DNA of 45,774 bases from a phage. This document shows, piece by piece, positions 3,308-42,024 of the stretch (positions are counted from its first letter, which is position 1; each line of letters starts with the position of its first letter). The translations under genes and the position numbers were made by a program. Location: the sequence record PZ349761.1, one strand, 5' to 3'. The notes under the pieces were generated by a model that made no database searches, was not told where the DNA came from, and worked only from the letters and a program-made list of their open reading frames with translations.

Positions 3308-3499
3308 ATGATTACAATTAACCTTTCAGAAGAAATGGCTGCTGACCTTATTGATTCACTAAGCCTGGTTAAAATTCGATACGGAACTTACCACATGAGC
3401 GAATCAGTAAAGGAAGTGGTAAAGCAAGTTAAGCAGCAGGTCGGAGCTGCCAAAATTGAATTGCAGAACACCCCGTGCGATTTTAATAAAGGTGAATAA
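3308..3499 (+). CDS. hypothetical small protein (MITINLS family, copy 1)
   Basis: ORF; N-terminus MITINLSEE shared with next gene. Confidence 0.5.
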
Positions 3500-3500
3500 G

Positions 3501-3728
3501 ATGATTACGATTAACCTGTCAGACAAGCAAGCGGCAGAACTCAAGTCCATGATGAACTCTTTCATGCCAACGCGCTGCGACGGTCAGCGTAATGTGGTAG
3601 ATGAGGTTAGAGACCAAATCAACAATCAGCAATTTGACGTATCAGACTTCGAGTCGTCACGGCAGTACGAAGCATTAAGCGTCAACGCTGCATACCTTAC
3701 TAACTGGGATAAGGCGACAAAGAAATGA
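3501..3728 (+). CDS. hypothetical small protein (MITINLS family, copy 2)
   Basis: In-frame ATG at 3501 right after stop of copy 1; N-terminus MITINLSDKQ. Confidence 0.5.
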   Translation: MITINLSDKQAAELKSMMNSFMPTRCDGQRNVVDEVRDQINNQQFDVSDFESSRQYEALSVNAAYLTNWDKATKK

Positions 3729-3898
3729 AGCTTGACAAAGAGGTATTAAGAGATAATTTCATAGCTCACGGAATTGATGATGAAGAGTTCCTAAATTGGT
3801 TCCTTGATAAAAAAGCCGATGAGCTTGGTTTGTACTGGTTCTCAACTGGCGCGACAATGTACGAGGCATGGATGGCAGCAATGGAGACTAAGAAATGA
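3725..3898 (+). CDS. hypothetical small protein (57 aa)
   Basis: Short ORF below track cutoff, read by eye; start overlaps upstream stop (ATGA); fits same-strand gene packing better than antisense ORF 3766-4035. Confidence 0.3.
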   Translation: MKLDKEVLRDNFIAHGIDDEEFLNWFLDKKADELGLYWFSTGATMYEAWMAAMETKK

Positions 3899-4674: not shown

Positions 4675-4819
4675 CACTTGTGTATTTTTTTATGATGGTG
4701 AATTTATTGATGACTTAATCTACTTCAATGAAAAGTATGGCGACACATTCGAATGCGACGGTGACAATCTCGAGGTTCTAGCGACATTCAATAGGGGTGG
4801 CAAAAATGAGTTTCACTGA
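4667..4819 (+). CDS. hypothetical small protein (50 aa)
   Basis: In-frame ATG within track ORF 4631-4819, overlapping upstream stop. Confidence 0.4.
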   Translation: MTNTCVFFYDGEFIDDLIYFNEKYGDTFECDGDNLEVLATFNRGGKNEFH

Positions 4820-5950: not shown

Positions 5951-6028
5951 GCTCCGCTAGCTCAATTGGACAGAAGCAACGACCTTCTAAGTCGCAGGTT
6001 ACTGGTTCGAATCCAGTGCGGAGCGCCA
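5951..6028 (+). tRNA. tRNA-Arg (anticodon UCU), CCA encoded
   Basis: Cloverleaf read by eye: 7-bp acceptor GCTCCGC/GCGGAGC, T8, anticodon loop CTTCTAA with TCT at 5986-5988, T-arm ACTGG-TTCGAAT-CCAGT, discriminator G, CCA 6026-6028. Confidence 0.8.
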
Positions 6029-40299: not shown

Positions 40300-40476
40300 A
40301 TGACTAAAATGATTTATTGCACCAAGAACAACTCCAAGACACTGCCATTTACAGTTAACCAACCGTACAATGCAGAGTACCAGGGTGACGGATACTACAA
40401 GATTTACGGCGACGATATGACGTGGATTTTAGCGCCGATTGATGGTTCGCTGGTTGAATTTATTATCGCAGACTAG
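40300..40476 (+). CDS. hypothetical small protein (58 aa)
   Basis: Short ORF with cassette promoter and RBS ACGAGG; read by eye. Confidence 0.4.
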   Translation: MTKMIYCTKNNSKTLPFTVNQPYNAEYQGDGYYKIYGDDMTWILAPIDGSLVEFIIAD

Positions 40477-40502
40477 CGCATCTAAAACATAGCTTTACAA
40501 GT

Positions 40503-40528
40503 GGGGGGCCTTTTGGCTCCCCTTTTTT
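40503..40528 (+). terminator. rho-independent terminator
   Basis: G-rich/C-rich hairpin followed by T6. Confidence 0.55.
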
Positions 40529-40580
40529 GTGCTTCTTTTCCGAGCAGGGCTGCTGTATCATTCTTTTACTAACTTAAACA

Positions 40581-40823
40581 TTGACAGATAGACAAATGGA
40601 GGATCACATGAGGGAAGTAATCAACGCCGCTACGGCGTCAACTGGAGGGGCAGCGGTAACTGGAGCGGCAACTGGTCAGATGACTATAGCAATAATCAGC
40701 CTTATCGCTTTAATCATTTTTGGTGCGTGGGGTGCTTACTGGAAGTTTAAGGATAGCCAGGCGATTCGGCGCGCTCTTGAATCAGGAGACTTAAAAACAG
40801 CAATCAAGATAAGGAGTAAGTAA
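40581..40823 (+). CDS. holin (pinholin-like, two predicted TMDs)
   Basis: 80 aa; weakly hydrophobic Gly/Ala-rich segment then strongly hydrophobic MTIAIISLIALIIFGAWGAY, charged C-terminus; immediately upstream of endolysin. Confidence 0.55.
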   Translation: MTDRQMEDHMREVINAATASTGGAAVTGAATGQMTIAIISLIALIIFGAWGAYWKFKDSQAIRRALESGDLKTAIKIRSK

Positions 40824-41309
40824 ATGAAGCAGAAGCTGCTAATTAGCGCGGCTACGGCTGCGGCAATATACATCGCAGCGCCGCTTATTGAGCTCGTTGA
40901 GGGTGTGGAGAACAAGCCTTACATGGACATTGCCGGAATCCCTACAGTTTGTTCTGGTATTACTGGTCCTGACGTTGTTTGGGGTAAGACTTACAGCAAT
41001 AGTGAGTGCCGTAACCTGCTGGAGAAACACATCCAGATTCATGCTAAGTATGTTCAGGATGCAGTTACCTACCCAATTGCACCACAGACAAGAGCTGCAT
41101 TAATCAGCTTTAGCTATAACGTTGGCGGCAATGCAATGAGGAAGTCTACCGCTGTAAGGCTAATCAACCAGGGTAAAGTTGAGAAGGGTTGCAACGCTCT
41201 CGGGATGTGGAACAAAGCAAGAGTTAACGGAAAGCTGAAGGTAGTTAAAGGCTTGGTGAATCGCAGGAATGAGGAGATTAAGTTATGTTTAAGTGGATTG
41301 CAGCGTTAG
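40824..41309 (+). CDS. GH24 lysozyme endolysin with N-terminal signal-anchor-release (SAR)-like segment
   Basis: Catalytic triad spacing E-x8-D-x5-T in EGVENKPYMDIAGIPT; N-terminus LLISAATAAAIYIAAPL is Ala/Gly-rich and weakly hydrophobic. Confidence 0.7.
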   Translation: MKQKLLISAATAAAIYIAAPLIELVEGVENKPYMDIAGIPTVCSGITGPDVVWGKTYSNSECRNLLEKHIQIHAKYVQDAVTYPIAPQTRAALISFSYNVGGNAMRKSTAVRLINQGKVEKGCNALGMWNKARVNGKLKVVKGLVNRRNEEIKLCLSGLQR

Positions 41310-41674
41310 TAGTGTGCGTAGCTTTATCTGGATGTTCGGCAACTGATGCACTGACTGGATTGATTGGAAGCAAGCCGGAAGTTACAGCTCAGGTCGGGGC
41401 TGAGAACAACAAGGTTGGCGTTGGGTTAACGAATAAGGTCGATTCCAGCAGCTCCAGTGAAGCCACGGTTAAAGATTCTAAAGTTGGGTCACTTGATAGC
41501 TCAAGCGGGAAAAAGACTGCTGACAACTCTATTAAGGCATCTACAATCACTGCCGAAAAGATTGAGATTACCAACAACGACTCATCCGCGCCTCCATGGA
41601 TTGTAATGGGAGCTATGGGGTTGCTGTTTTTTGTTCCACTTACCGCAATCTTAAGACGCAAAAAAGCCTCCTAA
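41285..41674 (+). CDS. unimolecular spanin (N-terminal lipoprotein signal plus C-terminal TMD)
   Basis: Lipobox LSGC after signal peptide; C-terminal WIVMGAMGLLFFVPLTAIL then RRKKAS; last gene of lysis cassette. Confidence 0.65.
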   Translation: MFKWIAALVVCVALSGCSATDALTGLIGSKPEVTAQVGAENNKVGVGLTNKVDSSSSSEATVKDSKVGSLDSSSGKKTADNSIKASTITAEKIEITNNDSSAPPWIVMGAMGLLFFVPLTAILRRKKAS

Positions 41675-41690
41675 TGGAGGCTATATTTTT
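41661..41690. terminator. bidirectional terminator between lysis cassette and minus-strand genes
   Basis: GCCTCC-taat-GGAGGC hairpin flanked by A-run and T-run. Confidence 0.65.
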
Positions 41691-42024
41691 AGCTAAATAA
41701 CTCGTCGTCAGTCATTGTTCCTATATTCATCATCTCTTTTATGTACTTGCTTTGATACCCGTTAAGCGCCTCGAAGTTAAACTCAAATGGCCTCTTCAAG
41801 CTACCATTGCTAGCAAACTCACCGCACTTACCATCAATGTATCCCATGCTAAGCATCTTCGCGCAGAACTCCTTTGAAGCCGCGCTGCAAAACTCCCTAT
41901 GCGATAATCCTGCCGCCTTACTGAATCTCTGAGAGTCCTTATGCTGGTAGATGAATCGCGCCAAATGCTGTCGCGTGAAAAAGCTGTAAGATTCGCAGAA
42001 CCGGTACAAGTCAAGGATGAACAT
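41689..42024 (-). CDS. hypothetical protein (111 aa)
   Basis: ORF from track with ATG start. Confidence 0.45.
   Translation of the reverse strand: MFILDLYRFCESYSFFTRQHLARFIYQHKDSQRFSKAAGLSHREFCSAASKEFCAKMLSMGYIDGKCGEFASNGSLKRPFEFNFEALNGYQSKYIKEMMNIGTMTDDELFS

Follow-up and report, generated by a model that had tools for sequence, protein, structure and literature searches.

Phage T1 carries its lysis genes in the order gp13-gp12-gp11, the same order as in the locus described here, and T1 gp11 is the prototype of the unimolecular spanins (u-spanins). Phage 21, the second system with which we compared the locus, has a two-component Rz/Rz1 spanin and not a u-spanin. The papers on Sushi, TLS and KanT1 describe the T1 cassette as a pinholin, a SAR endolysin and a u-spanin, and according to Kongari et al. 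(2018; PMC6139136), the cassettes of the T1 gp11 family encode a pinholin together with a SAR endolysin. The same authors placed RTP and ACG-M12, at 129 aa, in the T1 gp11 family, found that T1 gp11 complements lambda Rz/Rz1, and presented the u-spanin fusion mechanism as a model (PMC6139136). Closest to our locus are the cassettes of the Rtp/SU57/vB_EcoS-12210I type (Braunvirinae: Rtpvirus, Veterinaerplatzvirus), with 87–98% nucleotide identity over positions 40400-41900; these are annotated as holin, endolysin (in one case “SAR endolysin”) and unimolecular spanin, with essentially no difference from the cassette here.

A Three-Gene Lysis Cassette of the T1/Rtp Type

The DNA that we analyzed (the window) is a stretch of 45,774 nucleotides (record PZ349761.1) from a Veterinaerplatzvirus phage of the Drexlerviridae. 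Its ORF listing places three ORFs on the plus strand at 40581-40823, 40824-41309 and 41285-41674, and the features in and around them are as follows:

40300..40476, plus strand: standalone SH3-clan protein of 58 aa, DUF7244, T1 gp14 homologue (Pfam PF23896, E = 1.3e-29)
40503..40522, plus strand: intrinsic terminator-like hairpin (8-bp stem with 7 GC pairs, T-run)
40533..40561, plus strand: candidate weak promoter (TTCTTT, 17 nt, TATCAT), inferred
40598..40603, plus strand: Shine-Dalgarno sequence GGAGGA for the holin, 4 nt before ATG 40608 (RBS annotated there in SU57)
40608..40823, plus strand: holin gene, 71 aa, T1 gp13 family (phrog_2877 holin, E = 5e-37)
40824..41309, plus strand: SAR-type GH24 endolysin, 161 aa (PF00959, E = 1.9e-35)
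40836-40889, plus strand: putative SAR segment of the endolysin, approximately residues 5-22 (hydropathy)
40899-40901, 40926-40928 and 40944-40946, plus strand: endolysin catalytic codons E26, D35 and T41 (E-x8-D-x5-T)
41285..41674, plus strand: unimolecular spanin, 129 aa, T1 gp11 family (phrog_1804 Rz-like spanin, E = 4.4e-49)
41333-41335, plus strand: codon of Cys17, at the end of the spanin lipoprotein signal (residues 1-17, lipobox LSGC)
41597-41653, plus strand: C-terminal TMD of the spanin, residues 105-123 (KD19 = 2.19), followed by an RRKKAS tail
41665..41682, both strands: bidirectional terminator hairpin, overlapping the spanin stop codon

These three genes are the ordinary module with which a T1/Rtp-like E. 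coli phage bursts its host, made up of a small holin, a probably membrane-tethered lysozyme and a single-protein spanin, and because of the gene order, the tight packing and the terminators on both flanks we treat them as one unit. We put at roughly 85% the probability that the unit is a late lysis cassette of a T1/Rtp-like siphophage in which a holin, a SAR endolysin and a u-spanin act in three steps. An earlier sequence-only reading of this DNA had proposed such a cassette, and its genes lie where that reading had put them; gene structures, motifs, homologies and conservation are directly observed. The features on which the proposal was built proved to be conserved and unique within the window: of the 144 ORFs that reach 60 aa or more in the six frames, exactly one combined an N-terminal hydrophobic segment with the E-x8-D-x5-T triad, and exactly one had a lipobox signal together with a TMD at the C-terminus. 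Synonymous codon changes outnumbered non-synonymous ones in all three frames when compared with relatives, and this pattern indicates purifying selection on the holin, endolysin and spanin frames.

The comparison with T1 gp11-gp13 that the sequence-only reading had proposed gave identities of 58% for the holin (T1 gp13), 46% for the endolysin and 44% for the spanin (117 aligned positions with T1 gp11). T1 has the identical LSGC lipobox, a 71-aa holin and the same triad, and its neighboring genes are those found here, with exonuclease gp16 and SH3-like gp14, then convergent gp10 and helicase gp09. The two loci differ in that T1 carries an HNH gene between the exonuclease and SH3 genes, where none is present here, and in that the T1 endolysin and spanin genes meet at a one-base junction, whereas those of our locus overlap, as had been read from the letters, by 25 nt (41285-41309). 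The SAR segment here is more hydrophobic than that of T1 gp12 (KD17 = 1.99 vs. 1.68), while the spanin TMD is less hydrophobic than that of T1 gp11 and contains a Pro.

The sequence-only reading had also taken the cassette as its main evidence for a T1-like assignment. The assignment holds, but it stands more firmly on nucleotide similarity across the genome to Veterinaerplatzvirus/Rtp phages and on the synteny with T1 from gp16 to gp09. The cassette confirms a Drexlerviridae (Rtp/Veterinaerplatzvirus) genome that uses the standard T1-type lysis strategy. This cassette type is already known, having been described in relatives, and the endolysin has already been assayed in what is evidently the same phage; the importance of the cassette beyond correct annotation is small.

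Proposed Course of Lysis

By homology or analogy with the systems above, the cassette would act as follows. The endolysin would be exported via the host Sec system, and the 71-aa holin would build up in the inner membrane, trigger at a set time and collapse the proton-motive force. Pinholes would most probably be made by the strongly hydrophobic second holin helix, once the weakly hydrophobic segment 1 had exited the bilayer. Depolarization would free the SAR segment from the membrane, and the endolysin would then refold as R21 does and degrade the peptidoglycan. Cys17 would carry the lipid anchor that holds the u-spanin in the outer membrane, and the C-terminal TMD would fix it in the inner one; with the peptidoglycan mesh gone, the u-spanin would be freed to disrupt the outer membrane, probably by fusing both membranes. 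Three of these points are carried over from homologous or analogous systems: that the SAR segment stays uncleaved and is released, that pinholes form, and that the spanin fuses the membranes.

Extent and Family of the Holin Gene

The first gene of the cassette had been read as encoding an 80-aa holin. A holin gene is indeed present, but the length did not stand, as the 80 aa counted from TTG 40581 are the maximal ORF and the gene itself encodes 71 aa from ATG 40608. In a PHROG profile search, positions 1-71 of phrog_2877 covered residues 10-80 of the 80-aa ORF, a full-length match to the 71-residue T1 gp13 family profile, and the annotations of relatives give the holin 71 aa. Upstream of ATG 40608 the in-frame codons lack conservation, with an in-frame stop in Rtp and no ATG 40596 in 26020III. 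A dual-start holin/antiholin arrangement (TTG 40581 or ATG 40596, then ATG 40608) was considered and rejected, since the upstream codons have no Shine-Dalgarno sequence and are not conserved. The holin annotation should read 71 aa.

At this length, the holin is 99–100% identical to those of Rtp and SU57 (100% for SU57), and the comparison with Rtp showed 19 synonymous changes to 1 non-synonymous change. The T1 gp13 family is narrow and accounts, among 1.84 billion representatives, for only approximately 8 clusters at 50% identity, and a broad search for distant relatives returned approximately 8 credible cluster representatives and no deeper family. At curated cut-offs, neither the holin nor the spanin was matched by Pfam or NCBIfam models, and both were recognized by PHROGs alone.

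Membrane Segments of the Holin

Hydropathy analysis agreed with the earlier description of a weakly hydrophobic, Gly/Ala-rich first segment followed by a strongly hydrophobic second one. In 71-aa numbering, residues 4-22, which are rich in Gly, Ala and Thr, gave KD19 = 0.91 with 79% G/A/S/T, whereas the strongly hydrophobic TMD, comprising residues 24-44, gave KD19 = 2.28 at residues 25-43. Segment 1 carries an i+4 stripe of small residues (A7, S11, A15, G19, G23), and the T1 gp13 family as a whole conserves an uncharged run of 42 residues. Save for one Asp in P0006, the only acidic residues in the family sit where the two segments meet, a junction that tolerates Glu; this arrangement is consistent with a hairpin, and the basic C-terminal tail of the holin with a C-in topology.

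The same weak-then-strong hydropathy pattern with a basic C-terminal tail is seen in the S21 68 holin of phage 21, whose sequence as used here matches the phage 21 record at 100% identity, and its dynamic TMD1 gave KD19 = 0.64 and 63% G/A/S/T, compared with 0.91 and 79% in segment 1 here. The likeness does not extend to the sequence: BLASTP found no detectable similarity between the two holins (E = 3.0), and our locus has no conserved dual start. In the absence of S21 homology, the holin can therefore be only an analogue and not a member of the S21 family. The adjacent gene encodes an R21-like SAR endolysin. Judged by its composition and by this pairing, rather than by S21 homology, the holin is most probably a pinholin; for T1-family holins in general, too, the label is an inferred one.

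The T1 GenBank record describes gp13 as having a “single transmembrane domain,” and a holin that crosses the membrane once, N-out and C-in, would keep its Gly/Ala-rich N-segment in the periplasm from the start and could make large holes. Such a topology would accord with the low hydropathy of segment 1, with an apparent insertion energy for this segment that sums to +6.7 kcal/mol on the biological hydrophobicity scale, and with the short N-terminal tail, MRE, which has a net charge near zero and could translocate easily; the lack of S21 homology and of a conserved antiholin start points the same way. We nevertheless consider it unlikely, given that TMD1 of S21 68, which is proven to be dynamic, has a hydropathy lower still (KD19 = 0.64, +6.4 kcal/mol) and that segment 1 is strongly conserved and nearly charge-free over approximately 20 positions, with an i+4 stripe typical of membrane helix packing. 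Moreover, the partner SAR endolysin requires depolarization only, and Young-lab annotations put T1-type holins in class II pinholins. It is more doubtful still that the protein represents a distinct type of small holin, not a pinholin in the S21 sense, in which the glycine-zipper-like A7-S11-A15-G19-G23 segment and an unusually conserved cytoplasmic tail would act differently; one conceivable form of this would be control by the neighboring cytoplasmic SH3 protein (DUF7244).

A Probable SAR Endolysin Homologous to R21

The endolysin had been described as having the GH24 triad E-x8-D-x5-T behind an Ala-rich, SAR-like N-terminus, and both elements were recovered. The triad falls at E26/D35/T41 within the PF00959 match, and the N-terminus consists of a basic MKQK followed by LLISAATAAAIYIAAPLI, with KD17 = 1.99 and 53% G/A/S/T at residues 6-22. 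As residues 1-42 contain no Cys, and the SAR segment is accordingly Cys-free, the disulfide mechanism of P1 Lyz does not apply. The best PDB matches were RrrD (4zpu) and R21 (3hde/3hdf), with E = 2.8e-28 to 5.5e-27. R21, a clear homologue (E ~1e-27; 1.3e-27 for 3hde), shares the triad and likewise has no Cys in its SAR segment (KD19 = 2.11, 63% G/A/S/T), and its alignment with our endolysin reaches into the SAR region; the Gly-Gly motif of the R21 SAR segment is absent from the window sequence. Homology to these solved structures already settles the fold of the endolysin. Homologues from T1, Tlsvirus, Hanrivervirus, Webervirus, Drulisvirus and Phimunavirus conserve both the hydrophobic N-terminal segment and the triad, and a curated relative from Citrobacter phage Sazh is labeled “putative soluble endolysin” despite a similar N-terminus.

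A 2026 preprint on phage vB-EcoS_57-3 describes its endolysin, 57_3Lys, as a class II SAR endolysin. The endolysin here is evidently this published protein, as its coordinates, N-terminus, molecular weight, pI and GRAVY all equal those of 57_3Lys. According to the preprint, 57_3Lys has a SignalP 6.0 match and the HAMAP SAR-endolysin signature and lyses cells when expressed alone, and this lysis is blocked by 5–10 mM NaN3; its authors admit that azide has pleiotropic effects. The azide experiment thus provides reported, indirect evidence for Sec-dependent, holin-independent export. Non-cleavage, membrane tethering and release would follow by analogy.

Azide sensitivity speaks to Sec dependence and not to tethering, and the SignalP 6.0 call of a signal peptide would also suit a cleavable Sec signal, with A12-A13-A14 as a possible source of a −3/−1 site and the secreted enzyme restrained in the periplasm by other means. 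This would sit poorly with the clear homology to R21 and RrrD, the alignment with R21 continuing into its SAR region, and with the position of catalytic E26 just 3 residues past the hydrophobic core. Pro20, after the best Ala-Ala pair, disfavors cleavage there, a G/A/S/T content like the 53% seen here is what SAR domains typically show, and the HAMAP signature reported for 57_3Lys is that of SAR endolysins. In R21, moreover, the released SAR segment is said, from work by Sun et al. in 2009, to belong to the active fold. We therefore regard cleavage as very improbable and retain the SAR endolysin.

A Unimolecular Spanin of the T1 gp11 Family

The last gene was read as encoding a 129-aa protein with both a lipobox (LSGC) and a C-terminal TMD, and this architecture is present: the N-terminus, MFKWIAALVVCVALSGC, contains LSGC with Cys17 and has Ser at +2, and residues 106-122 gave KD17 = 2.28. 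The absence of Asp at +2 is as expected for outer-membrane sorting. The periplasmic domain is Ser/Thr-rich and Cys-free; in the RTP spanin, 26 of 86 periplasmic residues are assigned to beta structure and 5 to helix (Kongari supplement, PMC6139136). Identity to the Rtp spanin is 84%, and to the SU57 protein annotated “unimolecular spanin” it is 91%. Kongari et al. (2018) clustered proteins that share at least 40% identity with a family member across 40% or more of the length, and by this rule the protein joins the T1 gp11 family through both T1 gp11 and Rtp. These data support a T1 gp11-type unimolecular spanin as the product of 41285-41674, and homology and analogy suggest a function in membrane fusion.

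If the 129-aa ORF were not a functional one-piece spanin, a hidden two-component spanin or another outer-membrane disruptor would have to take its place. Nothing positive points to one, the NCBIfam “spanin2” model scoring sub-threshold at 26.5 bits against a cut-off of 80, and we consider this almost certainly not to be the case. Lipobox and TMD occur together in every spanin homologue examined, in two phage families, and homologues are found in 1170 phage records, many of them labeled u-spanin; complementation of lambda Rz/Rz1 by T1 gp11 (PMC6139136) argues in the same direction. No ORF embedded in 41285-41674 bears a lipobox (the 49-aa ORF is Cys-free, and the 34-aa ORF has Cys residues but no lipoprotein signal), which effectively refutes a two-component spanin embedded in the gene.

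The annotation of the u-spanin should cover 129 aa including the signal peptide; the RefSeq version of the Rtp protein is 9 residues too short. As a separate observation, the u-spanin was overlooked in the preprint on phage vB-EcoS_57-3.

Flanking Elements and the Upstream SH3 Protein

Upstream of the cassette, the DUF7244 SH3 protein has no N-terminal hydrophobic segment. It has been proposed as an auxiliary lysis factor (PMC13164509), and we take it as a candidate accessory to the lysis module. Being cytoplasmic, it could not pass pinholes to reach the cell wall, so that a role as a wall-binding factor would be poorly explained.

The hairpin at 40503..40522 ends the upstream unit directly before the cassette and separates the SH3 gene from the holin gene; T1 has an equivalent hairpin between gp14 and gp13 (L004 4782-4808). 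Between 40523 and 40607, a consensus scan passed no canonical sigma-70 promoter and did not report the TTCTTT/TATCAT pair. The position of this candidate promoter at 40533..40561 matches that of a BPROM promoter annotated in SU57 at L001 2634-2662. At the other end, the hairpin at 41665..41682 is common to the spanin gene and the convergent minus-strand gene at 41689-42024, and a terminator is annotated at the equivalent position in both SU57 and T1.

Organization of the lysis cassette

We found the three lysis genes, predicted in a sequence-only reading to encode a pinholin-like holin, an endolysin of the SAR type and a unimolecular spanin (u-spanin), at the positions that it gave. They are tightly packed: the endolysin ATG directly adjoins the holin stop codon (TAA, 40821-40823), the endolysin and spanin genes overlap by 25 nt, as predicted, and a Shine-Dalgarno sequence is present at each of the three starts.

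Features of the lysis region and the tRNA gene
5951-6028, +, tRNA-Arg, anticodon TCT
40300-40476, +, standalone SH3-clan protein, DUF7244 (E = 1.3e-29), 58 aa, T1 gp14 homologue
40503-40522, terminator-like hairpin, upstream flank of the cassette
40581-40823, +, holin, maximal ORF, 80 aa from TTG
40608-40823, +, holin gene, corrected, 71 aa from ATG 40608
40824-41309, +, endolysin gene, 161 aa
41285-41674, +, spanin gene, 129 aa
41665-41682, terminator-like hairpin, bidirectional, downstream flank of the cassette

Codon changes relative to phages Rtp, SU57 and vB_EcoS-26020III were mostly synonymous in all three frames (synonymous to non-synonymous counts against Rtp: holin, 19 to 1; endolysin, 41 to 19; spanin, 33 to 20). 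As a control for chance, we screened every six-frame ORF in the window that reached 60 aa (144 in all) for feature combinations. Only the spanin ORF (1/144) combined a lipobox signal with a C-terminal transmembrane domain (TMD), and only the endolysin ORF (1/144) an N-terminal hydrophobic segment with a catalytic triad. The features of all three proteins were found again in T1, Tlsvirus, Hanrivervirus and Webervirus homologues, and those of the spanin and SAR-type endolysin also in the podoviruses Drulisvirus and Phimunavirus.

The endolysin

The endolysin carries the expected triad E26-x8-D35-x5-T41 after a hydrophobic N-terminal segment (residues 6-22; 17-residue hydropathy 1.99; 53% G/A/S/T) that lacks Cys, and it matches the GH24 family PF00959 (E = 1.9e-35). 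Its nearest solved structures are DLP12 lysozyme RrrD (4zpu) and phage 21 R21 (3hde, 3hdf), at E = 2.8e-28 to 5.5e-27, and the alignment extends into the SAR region of R21, the paradigm SAR endolysin. Its Cys-free SAR segment, together with an E-D-T triad, places it alongside R21 rather than in the P1 Lyz disulphide class.

The protein (17.55 kDa, pI 9.7, GRAVY -0.057; N-terminal 20 aa, MKQKLLISAATAAAIYIAAP) agrees in coordinates, size, N-terminus and these values with 57_3Lys, described in a preprint on phage vB-EcoS_57-3 (bioRxiv 10.64898/2026.09.09.750462). There, 57_3Lys has a SignalP 6 match and the HAMAP SAR-endolysin signature, and is likewise concluded to be a SAR endolysin. Expression of the endolysin alone, proposed as a check in the sequence-only reading, is also reported: plasmid-borne 57_3Lys lyses E. 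coli, and 5-10 mM NaN3 suppresses lysis, which indirectly indicates Sec dependence. We consider the protein very likely to be a SAR endolysin (probability about 0.85).

The spanin

Both the lipobox and the C-terminal TMD foreseen in the 129-aa protein are present. Its N-terminus, MFKWIAALVVCVALSGC, contains the lipobox LSGC with Cys17 and Ser at +2; the periplasmic part has no further Cys; and the TMD (residues 105-123; 19-residue hydropathy 2.19) is followed by RRKKAS. The protein matches phrog_1804 (E = 4.4e-49) and is 44% identical to T1 gp11, 84% to the Rtp protein and 91% to an SU57 protein annotated "unimolecular spanin". The T1 gp11 family includes RTP and vB_EcoS_ACG-M12, the RTP spanin has 129 aa and no periplasmic Cys, the gp11 lipobox is LSGC, and T1 gp11 complements a lambda Rz/Rz1 defect (Kongari et al., 2018, PMC6139136). 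A two-component spanin was also considered, and no embedded lipoprotein ORF in the spanin gene suggested one. The 129-aa protein is almost certainly a u-spanin.

In the RefSeq Rtp record (NC_007603.1), rtp65 is annotated at 3410-3772, as 120 aa from Met10 (MCVALSGC), so that the lipoprotein signal loses its n-region; the 129-aa start (MLKWIAALVMCVALSGC), which gives 3383-3772, is present, and Kongari's spanin database uses it. The preprint (bioRxiv 10.64898/2026.09.09.750462) covers the holin and endolysin and never mentions the spanin gene. U-spanins of the T1 gp11 family (42-51% identity) are found as well in the Autographiviridae podoviruses Klebsiella phage SU503 and Pectobacterium phage Gaspode. 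Their genes run in the order spanin-holin-endolysin, with a holin that is barely or not at all related and a longer endolysin that has a SAR-like N-terminus; given the different order and holin, the spanin travels independently of the T1 holin.

The holin

The proposed weak-then-strong pair of hydrophobic segments was borne out (residues 4-22, 19-residue hydropathy 0.91, 79% Gly/Ala/Ser/Thr; residues 25-43, 2.28), whereas the 80-aa length was not. The 71-position PHROG holin profile aligned with residues 10-80 of the maximal ORF, SU57 and Rtp are annotated with 71-aa holins, and GGAGGA lies 4 nt before ATG 40608. An in-frame ATG four codons upstream (MEDH-M; 40596-40610) resembles a dual-start motif. 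We rejected this candidate: the upstream ATG overlaps the Shine-Dalgarno sequence, would add acidic residues, not basic ones, and is not conserved in Rtp or vB_EcoS-26020III. Since conservation does not extend to the codons upstream of ATG 40608 (Rtp carries a stop in frame, and vB_EcoS-26020III lacks ATG 40596) and the start is ATG 40608, a conserved dual-start (antiholin) arrangement is excluded.

The holin matches phrog_2877 (E = 5e-37) and is 58% identical to T1 gp13; its family is narrow, with only about 8 clusters at 50% identity among 1.84 billion representatives. Across these clusters, residues 4-45 form an uncharged 42-residue run, acidic residues are confined to the point where the two segments join (except one Asp in P0006), and the C-terminal tail is basic and well conserved. 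This charge pattern fits a helical hairpin with both termini inside. In the phage 21 pinholin S21 68, TMD1, known to insert into and then exit the membrane, is no more hydrophobic than segment 1. T1-type holins have been termed class II pinholins (Kongari et al., 2018, PMC6139136; Sushi, TLS and KanT1 papers). On the other side, no sequence similarity to S21 68 was detected, no curated holin model (Pfam, NCBIfam) matched, and the T1 GenBank record notes a "single transmembrane domain" for the T1 holin; we therefore put the pinholin assignment no higher than probable. The reading of the cassette as holin, SAR endolysin and u-spanin is correct, with the pinholin part inferred.

Within residues 7-23, a small residue recurs at each fourth position (A7, S11, A15, G19, G23), a pattern largely kept in T1 and other family members; this glycine-zipper-like face of segment 1 may pack against the second helix.

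Proposed lysis pathway

While the gene structure, motifs, homology and conservation of the cassette are observed directly and Sec dependence is reported by others, we infer the remaining steps. The endolysin would be exported via Sec and, by analogy with R21, would stay uncleaved, held inactive in the inner membrane by its tether. Holin triggering would depolarize the membrane, freeing the SAR segment so that the enzyme could refold in the R21 manner and degrade peptidoglycan. The u-spanin, predicted to span both membranes with lipoylated Cys17 and the C-terminal TMD as its anchors, would then be freed from the mesh and, probably through fusion, disrupt the outer membrane (model of Kongari et al., 2018, PMC6139136).

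The upstream DUF7244 protein has been proposed as a Drexlerviridae accessory lysis factor (2026 paper, PMC13164509). As it has no export or signal sequence and pinholes would bar access to the wall, a periplasmic wall-binding role before lysis is doubtful. Co-transcription with the cassette is also disfavoured, since a strong terminator (40503-40522) separates its gene from the holin gene, an arrangement shared with T1 (4782-4808).

Genome affiliation

The cassette had been offered as the main evidence for a T1-like phage; genome-wide similarity supports this more strongly, and the cassette follows from the assignment. Identity of the region to Veterinaerplatzvirus T145P1 records (Drexlerviridae, subfamily Braunvirinae) is 95-98%, and to SU57, 2725-N35, CEB_EC3a, ACG-M12 and Rtp it is 87-92%; the first 25 kb of the window behave the same way. 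Synteny with T1 is complete over gp16-gp14-gp13-gp12-gp11-gp10-gp09. On all points compared, including the GC content (44%), the single tRNA gene and the endolysin, the window agrees with the description of vB-EcoS_57-3 (GenBank PZ349761), and it is almost certainly the genome of that phage. The cassette is ordinary, all its parts having been described for the family (Kongari et al., 2018, PMC6139136; Sushi, TLS and KanT1 papers), for relatives in GenBank (SU57, "unimolecular spanin"; vB_EcoS-26020III, "SAR endolysin") and for the endolysin itself.

T1/Rtp-like lysis genes also appear in records of Campylobacter phage A110b (MG065688.1) and Pseudomonas phage PsgS01F (PP134917.1), both 87-90% identical to this cassette in nucleotide sequence, and of Streptococcus phage MBBL140 (OR786094.1; 45% amino-acid identity to the spanin). 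Mislabelled hosts or contaminated preparations are the probable cause, in line with the notoriety of T1-like phages as laboratory contaminants.
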